From: a phage
Direction: 5' to 3' (one strand)
DNA length: 64,000 nt
Sequence record: OZ335963.1
Shown here: piece by piece, positions 4,344-51,060 of the stretch
How the letters are laid out: every line of letters begins with the position of its first letter
How positions within the stretch are numbered: the first letter of the stretch is position 1
Translations under genes and position numbers: made by a program
Notes under the pieces: model-generated
Databases searched by the model: none
What the model was told of the DNA's origin: nothing
What the model saw: only the letters and a program-made list of their open reading frames with translations

Positions 4344-4356
4344 TAGATTTATTCTA

Positions 4357-7053
4357 TCAGCCAAACAGGAAGTCTAACGAAGCTTTTTCCTCATAGTCCA
4401 TACCTGCTGATTCACACATGCCAGCAAGCGGTTTAACAAACGATTTTTGGAACAAAGTTGAGTAGTCAATCCAAGACAGTACATCAGAACGAATTTCTTT
4501 TGGAAGTTCTGTACCTGATGGCCAAGCAATGCACTTGTCACCAAATGGATTTCCTTCACGTAATGGAAGAACCATTACCTTATTTCCATCCAAAATTGGA
4601 GCTACACCTAAACCGTTAACAGCTCGACGATAAGTTAGCACACCACGAATATGGAATGGACATTTAAATCCTGGCCAGCCTTTATCATCATATTTCGCTA
4701 TATCGTTCGCAGTTTTTACTTCAGCAATAACTTTATAATCAAGTTGACGATATTCTTTCTCAAAGTTCTTGTAATATTCTTGGACGGACTCTTCGCCTTC
4801 CTGAAGAATACGACGAATACTTTCTTCGAGAGCTTCTTGTACTGCTTTTGGTGTTGAACTCTGCTGAGTTTCCATACCCATGATTTTTAGATGCGGTTCA
4901 GCAAATCGCTTATCTTCCATATCATAAACGTTCAGAGCATAACGTTTTTTCGCTTTCCAAAATCCACCAACACCCTTTGAACCAAGTGGAGGGCAAGAAA
5001 TAGCTTCACGGTCCATATGCATCAGATGCTCGCGGTTATTCATATAATCACATAACTCACGATATGCAACATCAATCATAGGTTCCATCTTTTTCTTACC
5101 AAACTGATTCATGAATTCAACTAAATCATTTTGTTCTTTAAAGCGGTCAAGACCTACTTTTTCAATAACTTTATCTACACAAACGTATACCGAATCAGTA
5201 TCACCTGCTGCGATGAAATCTTCACCATTAGTTCCACACACTTTGTTTAGATACTCATTAATTTTACGAGCAATCCACTGAATACCGACTTGACCGAAAA
5301 TTGTGATAGCAGTAGCATTTCGCAAATCATAGTAGCGGAAATGAATATTACCAAGAGCACCATAAAGACTGTTAATAAGAATTTTACGGTTCAGCTGATT
5401 TGTGTTAGCGAGTGTAGCTGCTTTTTCGCATTCTTCGATCAGACTATTAAGAACAGATTCGGTGTAATTCGATAATTCGTTTAAGAAATCATCACTGAAC
5501 TTAACATATCGTTCAACTTCTGGTTTAGTTGAGCAAGACCCTGCGCCTTTCATAATAATCTTTTTAATAGCTTCGGCATTCATTTCTTCCGCGAACATTT
5601 TCTTTTTCCAATCTTTACGCTGGAAAAATACTTTAGCGATTTCCTTTGGAATGATACCTTCTTGGTGCTTATCATACATCCATCCATTCGGAGAACAAGA
5701 ATATTCATCACTTGGCTTAGGAGCTGTTCCTGCGATATATTCATGAATTGGATGAACTTTAAACTGCCCGCGAATAGTCTCAGGACTAATGTTAACCTGA
5801 CGAATAATGCTAGGATACAGAGACGTCAAGTCAAAACTCATAATGTATCGACGAGCAATCGGTTTAGGTTCAAACACAAATGCACCTGGAAAACTCTGTT
5901 TAACGTGCGAACCTTGTTGAGGAATAACCTTATGTTCACCTTTCAGTGAGTTAAAAATAATAGCATCCCAAGTTTTAATAGGACTCATTACACCAGAAAA
6001 AGGCATTTTAGCGTAATAAGACATACTTAAAACTAGATCGATAAACCCACGAATTTTATCAATTGCTTGAACTGATTCTACGTCAATGATGTTATAACTA
6101 ATGTATCGTTGATGATTAGTCTCACGAAGTTTATTAATAGGACCATCGTACGGCAATTTACCTTTTTTGGTTTCATGTTGAGCAACTGATTCCAAAGAGA
6201 ACGATGGCAAATTAGTAAATGCGAATTTCTTGTATAAATCTAAATAATCAAGAATAGATACGCCATCAATAGAATAAATTTCTTTGCTACCGTACATATT
6301 TTGAATTAGTTTAGATTTTACTCGACCGATTGGAGAGAAGCGTTTCATACTACGTTCACCGAGAACCATTTTAACGCGATTCATGATATACGGAACGTCA
6401 AATCCCTCAATATTCCAACCGGTAAAAATAGCAGGTCGTTTCTGTTCCCAGAGATTAATATATTCCATGAGCATATCACGCTCATTATCAAATGGCATAT
6501 AAATTACTCGGTCAAGAATTTCTTGAGGAACTTCATCACCACCTTCACAGTCAAGCTTAGCAGCTAACTTTGCATCCCATTTTGATACTGAACCGTACAT
6601 TGAATTCAATAAATCAAAGACGTAAAAACGATCGTCAATTGAATCATAATGAGTGATAGCATCAATTTCATATTCTGCTTTCATTGGGTCAGGAAATTTA
6701 TCGCCAGTAACCTCAATGTCACAGTTAGCTACACGAACAAATTTTCGGTCATAAACAATTTCTGAACCATATGTATCACTGATATAAGCGAGTTTAAAAT
6801 CGTTCATACCGAGAGCTTCGAGACCGATGTCTTCCATTCGCTTCATCCAGTCTCGCGCATCTTTCATTGATGGAAATTTTTGAGGAGCGCAATTTTTACC
6901 ATAAATGTCTTTGTATTTTGACTCTTCCTTACAATGCCTAAACATAGTCGGAAGATATTCTACTTCGCGAGTACGTTCCTTTCCGTTTTCATCAATATAA
7001 CGCTCAACAATATTATTTCCGACTGTTTCGATAGAGATATAAAATTCTTTCAT
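4357..7053 (-). CDS. 43: DNA polymerase gp43 (family B)
   Basis: 898 aa, matches remembered T4 gp43 end to end (exonuclease and polymerase motifs). Confidence 0.97.
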   Translation of the reverse strand: MKEFYISIETVGNNIVERYIDENGKERTREVEYLPTMFRHCKEESKYKDIYGKNCAPQKFPSMKDARDWMKRMEDIGLEALGMNDFKLAYISDTYGSEIVYDRKFVRVANCDIEVTGDKFPDPMKAEYEIDAITHYDSIDDRFYVFDLLNSMYGSVSKWDAKLAAKLDCEGGDEVPQEILDRVIYMPFDNERDMLMEYINLWEQKRPAIFTGWNIEGFDVPYIMNRVKMVLGERSMKRFSPIGRVKSKLIQNMYGSKEIYSIDGVSILDYLDLYKKFAFTNLPSFSLESVAQHETKKGKLPYDGPINKLRETNHQRYISYNIIDVESVQAIDKIRGFIDLVLSMSYYAKMPFSGVMSPIKTWDAIIFNSLKGEHKVIPQQGSHVKQSFPGAFVFEPKPIARRYIMSFDLTSLYPSIIRQVNISPETIRGQFKVHPIHEYIAGTAPKPSDEYSCSPNGWMYDKHQEGIIPKEIAKVFFQRKDWKKKMFAEEMNAEAIKKIIMKGAGSCSTKPEVERYVKFSDDFLNELSNYTESVLNSLIEECEKAATLANTNQLNRKILINSLYGALGNIHFRYYDLRNATAITIFGQVGIQWIARKINEYLNKVCGTNGEDFIAAGDTDSVYVCVDKVIEKVGLDRFKEQNDLVEFMNQFGKKKMEPMIDVAYRELCDYMNNREHLMHMDREAISCPPLGSKGVGGFWKAKKRYALNVYDMEDKRFAEPHLKIMGMETQQSSTPKAVQEALEESIRRILQEGEESVQEYYKNFEKEYRQLDYKVIAEVKTANDIAKYDDKGWPGFKCPFHIRGVLTYRRAVNGLGVAPILDGNKVMVLPLREGNPFGDKCIAWPSGTELPKEIRSDVLSWIDYSTLFQKSFVKPLAGMCESAGMDYEEKASLDFLFG

Positions 7054-46515: not shown

Positions 46516-47079
46516 TTATTTACCTAGTTTAGTTATTATAGCTTCGGCAGCAGCTTTTAGCTTAGATGCGGTGTTAATACGATTTTTAATTTCAGTATAC
46601 GCATCGCCAAGAACATCAAGGCTATCAGAATAAACACTTACACTATTGCGTTCGCTATTTGAAATAGAACCTTTAGTTTTACGATCAAAATCGGTGTACA
46701 CGTCTTGAAGATCACGGGCTGCCTTCTTTGCATCATCCAATGCGTCAAGAGCTTTATTTAAAGCATTAACATATTTTTTAGTGTCAAACATATTCTTAGA
46801 AATTTTAACAGGTGCACGTTCAGGAGTAGCTAATGCAGATTTAGGAACCTGAGCGCCAGATGCCAGTTTCTTAGAAATTTTGAAAAATGCTTTATTGAAT
46901 TTATTTTCTTGACTCATCGTAAAAGAACTATTATCGATGTTATACATTTCAATAGCTTTAGCTTTCCACTTAAGAAAATCGCCGCGGTCTTTTGGGTCTA
47001 ATTGGAAGAATACTTTAGTAAGATCTGCTTCAGATGGTAATTTTGCTGCTTCGGTTAAAAATTCGGCATAGGTTTTCAT
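46516..47079 (-). CDS. internal-protein-like (capsid targeting sequence)
   Basis: 187 aa starting MKTYAEFLTEA, the prohead-protease cleaved targeting signal shared with IPII/IPIII. Confidence 0.6.
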   Translation of the reverse strand: MKTYAEFLTEAAKLPSEADLTKVFFQLDPKDRGDFLKWKAKAIEMYNIDNSSFTMSQENKFNKAFFKISKKLASGAQVPKSALATPERAPVKISKNMFDTKKYVNALNKALDALDDAKKAARDLQDVYTDFDRKTKGSISNSERNSVSVYSDSLDVLGDAYTEIKNRINTASKLKAAAEAIITKLGK

Positions 47080-47168
47080 TTAAAATCCTTGAAATAATTT
47101 ATCGGTTGGTTATTAATTATTTATTACTTTGTTATTATCCGTAACAGCATTCTATATGTGATTCAAAC

Positions 47169-47197
47169 TAAAAAGCCCCAACCTTTTGGTCGGGGCT
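47169..47197 (-). terminator. rho-independent terminator (copy 1 of 34-bp repeat)
   Basis: GCCCCGACC-AAAA-GGUUGGGGC followed by U5. Confidence 0.7.
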
Positions 47198-47204
47198 AAG
47201 AATG

Positions 47205-47678
47205 TTATTTGATTTGTTTAGCAGACCAAATGCGGTCTTTAATAATTTTTTGGATGTCTTCAACATACTCAAGAGAGTGAACATGTGGATTATCTTTGAA
47301 ACTATAAGCACGGGCTAACTTTTGGCCTTCGGTTTTGATTACTAAAAGCTCTTTAAGGATAGCTTCATATTTAGCAATAATTCCTTTAACGATATTTTTT
47401 TCTTGTGCCGCTTTAGGATCTGCTTTAGGAGCAGGTTTACCCGAAGCCTTTGCAAAAGCAGCGCCAGTAGCAACTAGACTTTTCCAGGCCATACTAACTG
47501 CATTTCCCGTAAATCCTTCTGCTTTCATGTCGCGAGCAAATTGGAATCGTGATTCGTCAGAAGCATCTTTATAGGAATATTTACCCGCTGCAATGGCTGC
47601 TTTTGCGACAGCTTGAATTTCGGTGCTAGATGCTTCATTTAACACCGCTTCATTTAAAAATTGAGCATATGATTTCAT
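47205..47678 (-). CDS. internal-protein-like (capsid targeting sequence)
   Basis: 157 aa starting MKSYAQFLNEA; late promoter upstream. Confidence 0.6.
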   Translation of the reverse strand: MKSYAQFLNEAVLNEASSTEIQAVAKAAIAAGKYSYKDASDESRFQFARDMKAEGFTGNAVSMAWKSLVATGAAFAKASGKPAPKADPKAAQEKNIVKGIIAKYEAILKELLVIKTEGQKLARAYSFKDNPHVHSLEYVEDIQKIIKDRIWSAKQIK

Positions 47679-47718
47679 CTTATTTCCTGTTTTAATTCGT
47701 GGATTTAATATACTACTG

Positions 47719-47726
47719 TATTTATA
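47719..47726 (-). promoter_or_regulatory. late promoter TATAAATA
   Basis: Exact TATAAATA on the minus strand about 40 nt upstream of the 47678 start. Confidence 0.5.
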
Positions 47727-47727
47727 C

Positions 47728-47756
47728 TAAAAAGCCCCAACCTTTCGGTCGGGGCT
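47728..47756 (-). terminator. rho-independent terminator at the end of the tRNA/stable-RNA transcript (copy 2 of repeat)
   Basis: GCCCCGACC-GAAA-GGUUGGGGC followed by U5. Confidence 0.7.
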
Positions 47757-47759
47757 AAG

Positions 47760-48072
47760 CCTTGCGGCAACCTTGTCGGGGTTCCACCTGCTAAGGCAAG
47801 TGTTTGTACGAAACGCCGGGATTTGAACCCGGTTATTAAGTAGTTGACGCTACTCAATATTTTTAAAAGGCCATATCTCGACCATATCCGAACGTTCCGT
47901 CAAAAACGCTACTCGGCTTACGGCAAAGATATTTCCTCGAATCGATAATTCTGTGCGCCGTTTCAGCTGTGATGTAAGGGGGCATTAACAGATCGTAAAG
48001 ATTTGTTAATGCCAGTCCTTACCCAGGGAACATCAGTCCGACGACTTACCGGTAGCGACCCGGTTTCTTGTT
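47760..48072 (-). ncRNA. candidate stable structured RNA(s) distal to the tRNA cluster
   Basis: No ORF; tRNA-like T-arm CCGGGTTCAAATCCCGG without an acceptor stem; 10-bp hairpin GGCATTAACA/TGTTAATGCC. Confidence 0.3.
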
Positions 48073-48148
48073 TGGTCGAGGCAGTAGGGATCGAACCTAC
48101 GACCTAGGACTTAGAAGGTCCTTGCTCTTCCTTCTGAGCTATGCCTCG
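48073..48148 (-). tRNA. tRNA-Arg (UCU)
   Basis: Hand-folded cloverleaf: acceptor CGAGGCA/TGCCTCG, anticodon loop CUUCUAA, T-arm GGTTCGATCC, CCA encoded. Confidence 0.8.
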
Positions 48149-48152
48149 TATT

Positions 48153-48227
48153 TGGCGGACATGCATGGATTCGAACCATGGACCAATTGATTAACAGTCA
48201 ACTGCTCTACCACTGAGCTACACATCC
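48153..48227 (-). tRNA. tRNA-Asn (GUU)
   Basis: Hand-folded: D-arm TAGCTCAGTGGTAGAGC, anticodon loop CUGUUAA, T-arm GGTTCGAATCC, CCA encoded; acceptor has two G-U pairs. Confidence 0.65.
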
Positions 48228-48231
48228 AAAT

Positions 48232-48318
48232 TGGTGGGGAGTGATGGAGTCGAACCACCCGAGTCGCAATGACAATGGATTTACAGTCCACACCGCTACC
48301 TCTACGGGATAACTCCCC
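48232..48318 (-). tRNA. tRNA-Tyr (GUA)
   Basis: Hand-folded: acceptor GGGGAGT/ACTCCCC, anticodon loop CUGUAAA, long variable arm, CCA encoded. Confidence 0.65.
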
Positions 48319-48331
48319 TTAATTCTTAATT

Positions 48332-48406
48332 TGGTGGCCCTGGGTGGAATTGAACCACCATCTGGCGATTATGAGTCGCTTGCTTGAACCTTCCAGCTAC
48401 AGGGCC
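48332..48406 (-). tRNA. tRNA with CAU anticodon (Ile or Met)
   Basis: Hand-folded: acceptor GGCCCTG/CAGGGCC, anticodon loop CUCAUAA, T-arm GGTTCAATTCC, CCA encoded. Confidence 0.7.
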
Positions 48407-48407
48407 T

Positions 48408-48483
48408 TGGTGCTGATTGACGGAATCGAACCGCCGACATCCTCATTACAAGTGAGGTGCTCTACCTACTGAGCTAAATCAGC
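48408..48483 (-). tRNA. tRNA-Thr (UGU)
   Basis: Hand-folded: acceptor GCTGATT/AATCAGC, anticodon stem CCTCA/TGAGG, loop CUUGUAA, CCA encoded. Confidence 0.8.
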
Positions 48484-48488
48484 AAAAC

Positions 48489-48578
48489 TGGCGGAGGCGA
48501 TAGGATTTGAACCTATGAGTCGCCGGAGCGACTGCCGGTTTTCAAGACCGGTGCATTAAACCACTCTGCCACGCCTCC
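48489..48578 (-). tRNA. tRNA-Ser (UGA)
   Basis: Hand-folded: acceptor GGAGGCG/CGCCTCC, anticodon loop CUUGAAA, long variable arm, CCA encoded. Confidence 0.8.
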
Positions 48579-48580
48579 AG

Positions 48581-48654
48581 TCTCCGCGGCAGGATTTGAA
48601 CCTGCGACATTCTGCTCCCAAAGCAGACGCTCTACCAAACTGAGCTACACGGAG
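48581..48654 (-). tRNA. tRNA-Pro (UGG), CCA not encoded
   Basis: Hand-folded: anticodon stem TCTGC/GCAGA, loop UUUGGGA; 3' end abuts tRNA-Ser with 2-nt spacer. Confidence 0.8.
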
Positions 48655-48664
48655 TAAATTAAAT

Positions 48665-48738
<74 letters not shown>

Positions 48739-48743
48739 AAATT

Positions 48744-48830
48744 TGGTGCGAGAAGTGGGACTCGAACCCACAAGGAAATCATTCCGCAGCATTTTAAGTG
48801 CTGTGCCTTTACCAATTTGACCATTCTCGC
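48744..48830 (-). tRNA. tRNA-Leu (UAA)
   Basis: Hand-folded: acceptor GCGAGAA/TTCTCGC, anticodon loop CUUAAAA, long variable arm, CCA encoded. Confidence 0.8.
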
Positions 48831-48831
48831 G

Positions 48832-48904
48832 CTGGGAATAAAGGACTCGAACCTTTGCATCTAGCAGTCAAAGTGCTATGCCTTACCAACTTGGCTAATT
48901 CCCA
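48832..48904 (-). tRNA. tRNA-Gln (UUG), CCA not encoded
   Basis: Hand-folded: acceptor TGGGAAT/ATTCCCA, anticodon loop CUUUGAC; 3' end 1 nt from tRNA-Leu 5' end. Confidence 0.8.
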
Positions 48905-48990
48905 ATTATTAACAAAGGCTCTCAAACAAGAACCCTTGATGATAGAGGGTATTAATCAGTGCGATATGAGTTAATAATAACAAATAATTC

Positions 48991-49506
48991 TTAAAGCAAA
49001 TTAAACATTTTAACGGTCGGTAAAACAATTTCTTCTTCGATATAAGCAAATTCTACATGTTCAACTACACGCAAGAAATCATATTCGCAGTATTCAGAAG
49101 CATGACCAAGAATATCAATGAGGCCTTCAGATATCTTATTACCATTCACAAAGAATAAGTCAAATACGCGTTCTTCATCTTCTTCGGATTTATTACCAAG
49201 GTCAACTTCTATATCAAAGACCTTTTTAATGAATTCTGGATAAAGTTGGTCTGAGAACAGTCCTTCAACCAAATATTCATATATAAAAAGCTCTTGCTCG
49301 CTGAATAAACCATTGCCGCAATAACGGTCAGCTTTGGTGCTAGAATGACGGCTCTTAAACTTCTTCAAAAGATATTTAAATTGTTGGAGCTCATGCTCTT
49401 CTACGCCAAACAGTGTTTTAGTTTTATAGTTGTCACCATCATTTTCATAGGTAGTGACATCAATTACGTAACCCTTAGGAATTGTGCTGCCTAAACGAAT
49501 ATACAT
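48991..49506 (-). CDS. hypothetical protein
   Basis: 171-aa acidic ORF between tRNA cluster and ipI. Confidence 0.55.
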   Translation of the reverse strand: MYIRLGSTIPKGYVIDVTTYENDGDNYKTKTLFGVEEHELQQFKYLLKKFKSRHSSTKADRYCGNGLFSEQELFIYEYLVEGLFSDQLYPEFIKKVFDIEVDLGNKSEEDEERVFDLFFVNGNKISEGLIDILGHASEYCEYDFLRVVEHVEFAYIEEEIVLPTVKMFNLL

Positions 49507-49802
49507 TTGCTCACCATATTAATGTAAGTATATTTAATACATTCAAGACCCAAAGGATTCTTGAAAATATCATATTCAAGAGGACCTTTTTCTGTTTCAA
49601 TAAAGAAATCAAAATTTACTGTATTAAATTTACGGTCTTCCTTTACTAATTTAACCTGTGAAGACGAACGGTCAATGTAAACCTTTTCAACTTCAAAACA
49701 CGTTAAAATGTCATAATCATCAATCAAGGCTTTAGCTGCTTCTTGATCATATTTATATCCATTTTCAATGGATGATACTTTCGCATAAAGAATCATTATC
49801 AA
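49491..49802 (-). CDS. hypothetical protein
   Basis: 103-aa ORF. Confidence 0.5.
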   Translation of the reverse strand: MIMILYAKVSSIENGYKYDQEAAKALIDDYDILTCFEVEKVYIDRSSSQVKLVKEDRKFNTVNFDFFIETEKGPLEYDIFKNPLGLECIKYTYINMVSKCIFV

Positions 49803-50380: not shown

Positions 50381-50445
50381 TAGTTGATAGGGTAATAGTA
50401 TCACAACTAAAACCCTATGTAAACAACTTTGTGAAATATTTATTA
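50381..50445 (-). promoter_or_regulatory. early promoter
   Basis: Minus-strand GTTTACATAGGGTTTTAGTTGTGATACTATTACC. Confidence 0.6.
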
Positions 50446-50730
50446 CAAAAGATTTTTAGCAATAATCTTGAGATGTGCCGCAGAAATGTGTTTAGCTTTA
50501 AACAACGCAGTTTCTTCAGCAGGAGAGATAATGATTGTAGCACCATCCTTTTTAGCAGACCACCCATCACCTAGGTAAACAGTACCTTTGATTTCTTCGC
50601 CATCAACCAGACTAATCATTGGTTTACCTTCTCGTCCTTTATTTGCTTTAATAACTTCAGAAGTAAGAGTAGCTTCGGTAATAGTAGAAACTGGGGTAGT
50701 TGTAGAAGTAAATTCTTTAAATGTTTTCAT
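50443..50730 (-). CDS. ipI: internal protein I (IPI, anti-restriction)
   Basis: 95-aa precursor with 19-residue targeting sequence MKTFKEFTSTTTPVSTITE before Ala20; T4 position upstream of 57B. Confidence 0.75.
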   Translation of the reverse strand: MKTFKEFTSTTTPVSTITEATLTSEVIKANKGREGKPMISLVDGEEIKGTVYLGDGWSAKKDGATIIISPAEETALFKAKHISAAHLKIIAKNLL

Positions 50731-50744
50731 TTTATTTTCCTAAT

Positions 50745-50810
50745 TAATTTTGATGAGATAATGGTATCACAACTAAAACCCTGTGTAAACAGCTTTGTGA
50801 AATTATTTTA
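50745..50810 (-). promoter_or_regulatory. early promoter (duplicated leader module, copy 1)
   Basis: Minus-strand GTTTACACAGGGTTTTAGTTGTGATACCATTATC; flanking 5' leader duplicated at 51075. Confidence 0.6.
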
Positions 50811-51060
50811 AATCTTCTAATCGTTTCTTCATCTTAGAACCGTTCTTAGCGATTTCGCCTGCATCAGAGCATAATGCTAAAAGAGCTTTAACTTTAGTTT
50901 GGTCTCCTTTAAAAGATGAAGGATCGACTGCAGCAGCAAGTTCTTTAATACGAGAGAAAAGACGCTCAGCTTCAGCTAAAGCCATTCCAAGCTTTACTTC
51001 CATACCGTGGGAAGATTCAGTAATAGTAGTTTTTGTAGCAAACTCTTTGAAAGTTTTCAT
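50803..51060 (-). CDS. internal-protein-like (capsid targeting sequence)
   Basis: 85 aa starting MKTFKEFATKTTITE; 5' leader and first codons duplicated from ipI. Confidence 0.55.
   Translation of the reverse strand: MKTFKEFATKTTITESSHGMEVKLGMALAEAERLFSRIKELAAAVDPSSFKGDQTKVKALLALCSDAGEIAKNGSKMKKRLEDLK

Follow-up and report, generated by a model that had tools for sequence, protein, structure and literature searches.

Tyr and Asn tRNA genes in a T4-like tRNA operon: a T2/RB3-type arrangement very probably lost from T4 through SegB homing

Introduction

In phage T4 (NC_000866) the tRNA operon carries, in transcription order, Gln, Leu, Gly, Pro, Ser, Thr, Ile, segB, Arg, rnaD and rnaC, which gives eight tRNA genes with neither Tyr nor Asn among them. 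SegB is a homing endonuclease, and its gene is absent from T2L, RB1 and RB3 (Brok-Volchanskaya et al., 2008, PMC2330249). The preferred 27-bp SegB site was located inside the tRNA-Asn gene of these three phages, and in co-infections of T4 with T2L, homing by SegB almost eliminated about 1250 bp of T2L DNA that encodes the Met, Tyr, Asn and Arg tRNAs (PMC2330249).

Phage tRNA-Tyr has also been studied in relation to host defense. The PtuAB nuclease of Septu cuts within the variable arm of tRNA-Tyr (Chihara et al., 2026, PMC13096335). Overexpression of the T6 tRNA-Tyr rescues T6 from Septu, deletion of the tRNA region sensitizes T6, and T4, which is without a tRNA-Tyr, cannot escape (PMC13096335). 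As the T6 tRNA-Tyr is itself cut by Septu (PMC13096335), the protection was taken to be dosage-dependent. The tRNA-Tyr of T5 and SP15 neutralizes retron-Eco7, an effect that needs the decoding function and depends on the promoter (Azam et al., 2024, PMC11555353).

Here, a T4-like tRNA operon carrying both a Tyr and an Asn gene was compared with these systems. Gene identity and structure, conservation, covariation, allele distribution, breakpoints and codon enrichment were computed in this analysis. SegB targeting and the anti-Septu and anti-retron roles of the T6 and T5 tRNA-Tyr were taken from the literature.

Gene content of the tRNA operon

The window (the whole stretch of phage DNA that was analyzed, 64 kb) was 96-98% identical to many published phages, dozens of which reached that level across the 1.4-kb tRNA region, and a 24-kb stretch of it had 95-97% identity to many genomes. 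On its sequence, the window is a Tequatrovirus. ARAGORN was run on the whole window and called ten tRNA genes at 48073-48904, each of them on the minus strand; the same ten were reported by Rfam RF00005 at the gathering threshold. The order of transcription was Gln(UUG), Leu(UAA), Gly(UCC), Pro(UGG), Ser(UGA), Thr(UGU), CAU, Tyr(GUA), Asn(GUU), Arg(UCU). An earlier note on this DNA had folded the same ten by hand in the same order, and both programs agreed with it, also in reading the Tyr and Asn folds as genuine tRNAs with these anticodons. The features of the locus are as follows.

48831-48904, minus strand: tRNA-Gln (ARAGORN)
48744-48830, minus strand: tRNA-Leu (ARAGORN)
48665-48738, minus strand: tRNA-Gly (ARAGORN)
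48580-48654, minus strand: tRNA-Pro (ARAGORN)
48489-48578, minus strand: tRNA-Ser (ARAGORN)
48408-48483, minus strand: tRNA-Thr (ARAGORN)
48408-48904, minus strand: the block of six upstream tRNAs common to T4 (Gln, Leu, Gly, Pro, Ser, Thr)
48332-48406, minus strand: CAU-anticodon tRNA, T2-type allele (Met according to ARAGORN and most records)
48232-48318, minus strand: tRNA-Tyr (GUA), class II, with long variable arm, A73 and encoded CCA (ARAGORN, RF00005)
48153-48227, minus strand: tRNA-Asn (GUU), with G73, encoded CCA and two acceptor-stem G.U pairs (ARAGORN, RF00005)
48151-48177, minus strand: 27-bp sequence homologous to the preferred SegB site, GGTTCGAATCCATGCATGTCCGCCAAA, made up of the 3' part of tRNA-Asn and 2 nt
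48073-48148, minus strand: tRNA-Arg (UCU), T2-type allele, unlike the tRNA-Arg of T4 and T6 (ARAGORN)
47953-48068, minus strand: rnaD, species 2 stable RNA (blastn, 88% identical to T4 rnaD over 115 nt)
47807-47945, minus strand: rnaC, species 1 stable RNA (blastn, 98.6% identical to T4 rnaC over 139 nt)
47733-47756, minus strand: intrinsic-terminator-like hairpin with a T run (pattern scan, a match to the consensus only)

The interval 48153-48318 extends exactly from the 3' end of tRNA-Asn to tRNA-Tyr's 5' end. No credible ORF was present in it, just ORFs of 40-50 aa that overlap the tRNAs, and no homologue of T4 SegB was found within the 64-kb window (tblastn, best E 1.6); the earlier note's observation that the CAU and Arg tRNAs enclose no ORF was thereby borne out. 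The CAU tRNA was identical to E. coli ileX (tRNA-Ile2) at 58/76 positions, including the whole anticodon arm and the GGCCC/GGGCC acceptor end; with T4 tRNA-Ile it shared only 47/75.

Downstream, rnaD begins 4 nt after tRNA-Arg and is also annotated in the RB3 record, and rnaC is annotated in the records of both Kha5h and RB3. The hairpin has a 10-bp stem with 7 G-C pairs and a TTTTT tail, and a terminator is annotated at the homologous place in Kha5h. T4 has the same layout of tRNA-Arg, rnaD, rnaC and terminator. From this homology, the ten tRNAs, rnaD and rnaC would make up one minus-strand unit that ends at the 47733-47756 hairpin, and host enzymes would excise the tRNAs from the transcript. 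When 47000-49700 was scanned for sigma-70 promoters, 4 sites were found where 6.1 were expected, which is uninformative.

Exchange of the segB segment

T4 has the operon in the same orientation and between the same flanks as the window, and homology covers its first six tRNAs and rnaC/rnaD. The two differ in that T4 has segB (666 bp) where the window has Tyr and Asn, and in that the CAU and Arg tRNA sequences are different. The T4 record (NC_000866) agrees with what the earlier note had said of it, namely eight tRNAs without Tyr and Asn, and segB at the homologous place. The window was 97% identical to T4 over the aligned segment, which takes in tRNA-Thr and about 20 nt of the CAU tRNA; beyond it homology ended, to resume only in the T arm of tRNA-Arg. 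Since the CAU and Arg tRNAs on either side are thereby different alleles from those of T4 as well, the difference was read as a cassette swap and not as an insertion.

The earlier note had described the two genes as inserted into the canonical T4 tRNA order, and this description did not hold. That the eight-tRNA order of T4 is ancestral, with Tyr and Asn inserted in the present lineage, was judged very unlikely. Such a history would fit the standing of T4 as the reference genome with eight tRNAs, and the fact that tRNA genes do move between phages, the Tyr lineage being found in unrelated ones. The distribution of the two forms is against it: the Tyr+Asn pair was present in 468 phage records (at least 80% coverage) and T4 segB in 126, so that the Tyr-Asn form is about 3.7 times commoner; it occurs in T2 and RB3; and the Asn gene is also found without Tyr, as Met-Asn-Arg, in more distant T4-like genomes. 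Moreover, segB has been shown to be mobile, with tRNA-Asn as its target, and to overwrite the block, and an insertion would not cause the CAU and Arg flanks to differ.

Since SegB targets tRNA-Asn and homing replaces the block, the segB-bearing state of T4 was taken as the derived one. In T4, segB would have replaced both Tyr and Asn, with co-conversion of the neighboring CAU and Arg tRNAs; in T6, it would have replaced tRNA-Asn. No tRNA-Asn remnants were found next to segB in T4 or T6. An rnaD motif was used to scan IMG/VR, and of the 28 loci obtained about 12 proved to be tRNA regions of the T4-like kind, a sample too small for frequencies; the variants of the slot among them were Met-Arg, Met-Asn-Arg, an eight-tRNA gapped form, and ten- and eleven-tRNA forms.

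The T2 Asn and Ser sites of SegB are stated to differ at G6, A16, G18, A26 and A27 (PMC2330249), and the register of the 27-mer was checked by finding the T2 sites to differ at exactly these positions. The window 27-mer retained all five discriminating bases together with the motifs GGTTCGAATCC and CCAAA (consensus GGTTCRANTCC and CCAR), and departed at positions 12, 13, 14 and 17 (4/27, in the degenerate middle) from the T2/RB3 site that had been tested. On this comparison, the tRNA-Asn allele of the window would probably be sensitive to SegB.

Taken as a whole, we hold with high confidence that the two genes encode functional phage tRNAs of a common segB-less operon of the T2/RB3 type, and that T4 lost them via SegB homing. 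The arrangement itself is already known: it is the T2/RB3-type allele, for which experiments were published in 2008, and hundreds of genome annotations include it. RB3, JB75 and Kha5h are annotated with all ten tRNAs in this order.

Structure and conservation of tRNA-Asn

The earlier note had asked for verification of the tRNA-Asn call because its acceptor stem needs two G-U pairs. These pairs exist (U4.G69 and G5.U68 in the ARAGORN drawing), but the doubt was misplaced: tRNA-Asn scored 72.6 bits against RF00005 (E 9e-16), and it is tRNA-Tyr that is marginal. The two-nucleotide connector (positions 8-9) and D stem of the RF00005 type were both found in tRNA-Asn.

Between the window allele and that of T2/RB3, which is 14 nt different, five pairs were fully compensated (29:41, 31:39, 49:65, 50:64 and 51:63) and one further pair changed from G.U to G-C. 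An alignment of six tRNA-Asn sequences with E. coli asnT included (A3) had compensatory changes in 16/21 pairs, 98.4% of cells paired, and G73 invariant. E. coli asnT has the same anticodon loop, CUGUUAA. Identity elements of E. coli AsnRS are the anticodon G34-U35-U36 and discriminator G73, and tRNA-Asn carries both (GUU, G73). The window-type allele is common to JB75, Kha5h and SHBML-50-1, and is 1 nt from the allele of JS98-like phages.

Minimum free energy folding gave no cloverleaf for tRNA-Asn or for tRNA-Tyr (z -0.9 and -1.1 against shuffles). This is usual for tRNAs and uninformative, and covariation was used instead.

Structure and conservation of tRNA-Tyr

The RF00005 score of tRNA-Tyr was 30.2 bits, against a gathering score of 29 (E 4e-4). 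For comparative analysis, 70 distinct relatives were gathered from IMG/VR and phage records. In an alignment of 53 distinct relatives (A2), 17/24 pairs had compensatory changes and 99.2% of cells were paired, a level reached by 0/500 shuffles and above that of all slid controls. The compensatory changes were extensive in the four helices other than the D stem. Discriminator A73 was present in 70/70 relatives, and the anticodon loop, CUGUAAA, is that of E. coli tyrT.

The D stem required separate treatment. All 70 relatives have a 7-bp acceptor stem followed by a UANN connector, CCGU, a canonical D loop and GCGG; in the window the connector is UAUC and the D loop AGAGGUA. A two-nucleotide connector (positions 8-9) leading into a D stem of 3-4 bp was not found. 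With such a connector the D stem was 54.7% paired across relatives and pair 12:23 never formed, whereas CCGU/GCGG behind the four-nucleotide UANN connector was 100% paired, yet invariant, and this shifted register was partly fixed by the search pattern used to collect the relatives. The register with the four-nucleotide connector is therefore favored, on pairing across the family, but not proven. We attribute the low covariance score of tRNA-Tyr to this family-wide four-nucleotide connector before the D stem, and not to decay.

Other folds were considered and dropped. The D-stem register drawn by ARAGORN, UCCC/GCGG with a C.C mismatch, was abandoned for the same difference in pairing (54.7% vs. 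100% in the shifted register). A 9-bp acceptor, or an 8/5 fold like that of tRNA-Sec, was rejected, as the eighth pair would be U.C and the score against the tRNA-Sec model, though higher than that against RF00005, was 34.4 bits, under that family's threshold of 47. The T5 tRNA-Tyr has the variant CUGU/GCAG, which is compatible with both D-stem registers.

The four-nucleotide connector is not specific to phages, as 51 matches were found in cellular genomes. These were mostly tRNA-Tyr genes of Lachnospiraceae and Tahibacter, and none of the 51 was from Enterobacteriaceae.

Identity elements of E. coli TyrRS are A73, the anticodon G34-U35-A36, a long variable arm and G1-C72. All four are carried by the window tRNA-Tyr. 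Two indirect observations bear on charging with tyrosine: according to the T5 record, the tRNA-Tyr of T5 can turn into an amber suppressor that works effectively, and the T6 and T5 tRNA-Tyr rescue phenotypes that depend on translation. The phage Tyr and Asn tRNAs would be charged by host TyrRS and AsnRS, and by analogy with the described phages both may be expected to be expressed, charged and of benefit in this phage.

The tRNA-Tyr of the window is identical in RB3, RB6, JB75, Kha5h and SHBML-50-1. Searched alone, the gene was found in 1347 phage records, and 144 records were at least 99% identical. Its lineage is common to unrelated coliphage groups (T4-like, T5-like, rV5-like and FelixO1-like).

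A pseudogene assignment by tRNAscan-SE had been named in the earlier note as evidence against these genes. Formally, one was found: the identical copy in Shigella phage SHBML-50-1 (KX130864) is labelled 'tRNA-Pseudo-GTA', from a tRNAscan-SE run by another group. Covariation and the published experiments overrule this flag. That one or both genes are decaying pseudogenes, with tRNA-Tyr as the candidate, was judged extremely improbable. The flag, the score close to the gathering value, the mismatched C.C of the D stem and the G.U of the T stem in the ARAGORN drawing, and the label 'tRNA-OTHER' on the homologous Tyr gene in two other records all point that way. However, the low score is explained by the UANN connector with an intact CCGU/GCGG D stem in 70/70 relatives, and decay does not fit the compensatory change in the other four helices, the 100% conservation in RB3, RB6, JB75 and others together with the 144 near-identical records, or the expression and biological activity of its kin in T6 and T5.

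Codon usage

Codon usage was compared between 85 ORFs of the window (18,004 codons) and 44 annotated genes of E. coli K-12 (16,431 codons). Both codons of interest were enriched about twofold: TAT occurred at 36.1 per 1000 in the window vs. 16.6 in E. coli (2.2x), and AAT at 42.5 vs. 20.1 (2.1x), which made them the second and fourth most enriched codons of the window. Other codons of phage tRNAs were enriched as well (AGA 6x, ATA 2.1x, TCA 2.1x, GGA 1.9x, ACA 1.7x, TTA 1.6x, CCA 1.4x and CAA 1.3x). All ten phage tRNAs thus read enriched codons, which supports the classical role of codon supply. With the Tyr and Asn tRNAs, the tRNA pools for UAU/UAC and AAU/AAC would grow, and use of these codons in the AT-rich phage far exceeds that in E. 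coli. Codon supply is not a complete explanation, since Lys codons were 2x enriched and no tRNA-Lys is encoded in the window.

Counter-defense role

The tRNA-Tyr of the window agrees with the tested T6 gene at 85/87 nt. From this likeness we infer anti-defense activity: the window tRNA-Tyr would also buffer the phage against the PtuAB nucleases of Septu and retron-Eco7.

Selection on the two tRNAs, or on Tyr at least, could even act chiefly through counter-defense in place of codon supply; we regard this as a tentative possibility, with the balance somewhat against it. It is suggested by the effects on Septu of a T6 tRNA-Tyr only 2 nt from that of the window, which rescues T6, and of deletion of the T6 tRNA region, which sensitizes it; by the neutralization of retron-Eco7 through the T5/SP15 tRNA-Tyr; and by the spread of the lineage over T4-, T5-, rV5- and FelixO1-like phages, with variable and T arms identical to those of T5. 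A further point in its favor is that the slot also holds His-GTG in relatives, though CAU/CAC codons are not enriched. Against it, the literature examined gave no tRNA-Asn nuclease that is countered by a phage tRNA-Asn, and the SP15 tRNA-Asn did not rescue from PrrC170 (PMC11555353). The published rescue works via decoding and dosage, so that the two roles are inseparable, and the enrichment of UAU and AAU is strong.

A wider version of this idea, which we consider doubtful, is that the place next to rnaD is a counter-defense slot that prefers GUN-anticodon tRNAs, built around a tRNA-Tyr whose structure, with a four-nucleotide connector and a fixed CCGU/GCGG D stem, is atypical and which would have spread horizontally over T4-, T5-, rV5- and FelixO1-like coliphages to counter tRNA-Tyr nucleases, with codon supply secondary. 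In this phage the slot contains Tyr and Asn; SHBML-50-1 and one IMG/VR genome have His in addition. The tRNAs with GUN anticodons are those of the queuosine family. If this were true, SegB homing would keep a variable slot adjacent to rnaD in flux.

Implications

For the window itself these results are of little importance, as the arrangement is the standard one of most Tequatrovirus genomes. They bear more on how such loci are annotated. T4 is unfit as the 'canonical' tRNA set for T4-like genomes, its own state being a minority one made by segB, and tRNA-Tyr genes of this type should not be discarded as pseudogenes over a low covariance-model score. Two predictions follow for the phage. Carriage of tRNA-Tyr predicts partial protection against defenses of the Septu and retron-Eco7 type, and an uninterrupted tRNA-Asn predicts that the locus would be overwritten in co-infection with segB-bearing phages. 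Both predictions are relevant to the choice of phages for therapy or mixed cocktails.

Comparison with known phages

The tRNA locus of T2L, RB1 and RB3 is among the closest known counterparts. RB3 (KM606994) is without segB and has CAU, Tyr, Asn and Arg between tRNA-Thr and rnaD, as in the window; its CAU-to-Arg block was 94.3% identical to that of the window. T2 (AP018813) has the same CAU-Tyr-Asn-Arg module; its CAU allele is that of the window, and its Arg allele differs by 1 nt. Unlike the window, T2 is without tRNA-Thr, and an ORF lies between its Ser and CAU genes.

T6 is intermediate between the window and T4. It has a T4-type CAU tRNA, then Tyr, then segB in the slot where the window has Asn, and a T4-type Arg; homology with the window breaks off exactly where the Tyr spacer ends. 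The Pro, Ser and Asn tRNAs are absent from T6. Both of the nucleotides at which its tRNA-Tyr differs from that of the window (2/87) are G-C/G.U exchanges, and the variable arm, in which Septu cleaves, is identical. T6 escapes Septu by SegB-driven tandem amplification of Tyr, whereas the window is without segB and has no local driver.

The tRNA-Tyr of T5 (NC_005859, T5t22) was identical to that of the window at 75 positions. From the variable arm through the T arm all positions are identical and the UANN connector architecture is shared, while the sequences of the acceptor, D stem and anticodon stem differ. In T5 the gene lies in an unrelated context, a 25-tRNA region with its own promoters.

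Accessory tRNAs of the Tyr/Asn slot

48232-48318, minus strand: tRNA-Tyr
48153-48227, minus strand: tRNA-Asn
1611-1686 of the L006 locus (KX130864) and 4355-4430 of the L016 locus, both from relatives: tRNA-His(GUG), an eleventh tRNA

The three accessory tRNAs seen between the CAU tRNA and tRNA-Arg (Tyr-GUA, Asn-GUU and His-GUG) all carry a GUN anticodon, that of the queuosine family. tRNA-His, present in some relatives, lies between tRNA-Asn and tRNA-Arg. His codons were not enriched in the window (CAU 1.0x, CAC 0.4x), so codon supply is no obvious explanation for it.

The window tRNA-Tyr was aligned with those of distinct relatives (alignment A2). Its acceptor stem is joined to the D stem by a 4-nt connector, U-A-N-N (UAUC in the window), instead of the usual 2 nt, and the D stem (CCGU/GCGG) is invariant in the alignment. 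The connector was found in 70/70 distinct relatives analysed, and cellular tRNA-Tyr genes from Lachnospiraceae and Tahibacter have it too. This connector accounts for the marginal covariance-model score of tRNA-Tyr, and for the labels 'pseudo' and 'tRNA-OTHER' in some records. By eye, base 26 seems to co-vary with the fourth connector base (C with U, A with G).

For tRNA-Asn, comparison with T2, RB3 and two further relatives (L014 and L034) revealed two clearly distinct alleles circulating in Tequatrovirus. They are 14 nt apart, and the differences include five base pairs in which both partners have changed and pairing is kept. The more distant JS98-like genomes, which carry Met-Asn-Arg only, have a tRNA-Asn 1 nt different from the window-type allele. 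This suggests that single tRNA genes are exchanged between genera.

Identity of the CAU tRNA

48332-48406, minus strand: CAU tRNA, named tRNA-Met by ARAGORN and most genome records

This gene is probably an AUA-reading tRNA-Ile, as in T4, judging from its likeness to E. coli ileX (tRNA-Ile2, lysidine-modified CAU): 58/76 positions are identical, and the anticodon arm (GCGAC-UCAUAA-UCGC) and the GGCCC/GGGCC acceptor end are shared. ATA codons are enriched 2.1x in the window. Only 47/75 positions are common to the window CAU tRNA and T4 tRNA-Ile.

Stable RNAs and downstream ORFs

47807-48068, minus strand: rnaC and rnaD (stable RNA species 1 and 2), conserved
46516-47079 and 47205-47678, minus strand: paralogous phrog_2280 ORFs (187 and 157 aa), downstream of rnaC
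47174-47197 and 47733-47756: terminator-like hairpins with a 10-bp stem, one after each phrog_2280 ORF

In JB75 (2593-2912 of its locus), DNA homologous to rnaC/rnaD bears annotations for two small hypothetical proteins (JB75_0133 and JB75_0133A); these CDS calls overlie the stable RNAs and are probably spurious. The phrog_2280 ORFs begin with MKTYAEFLTEA and MKSYAQFLNEA, similar to the MKTFKEF... start of internal head proteins further upstream (50443-50730 and 50803-51060), and their hairpins are near-identical, AGCCCCGACC(G/A)AAAGGTTGGGGCT. T4 has no counterpart at the corresponding place.

Variation in the cluster and its flanks

48991-49506, minus strand: phrog_2290 ORF (171 aa), upstream of tRNA-Gln

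The cluster is also polymorphic outside the Tyr/Asn slot. In T2 (AP018813) tRNA-Thr is missing, and the Ser and CAU tRNAs are separated by a 402-bp ORF (2060-2461 of its locus) with the odd annotation 'tail sheath monomer'; T6 lacks the Pro and Ser tRNAs, and its tRNA-Thr, annotated in the record, was not called by ARAGORN. The window phrog_2290 ORF is of the type found in T2 and SHBML-50-1, whereas T4 and JB75 carry the trna.2 type; mosaicism in the operon flanks therefore does not depend on the Tyr/Asn slot.
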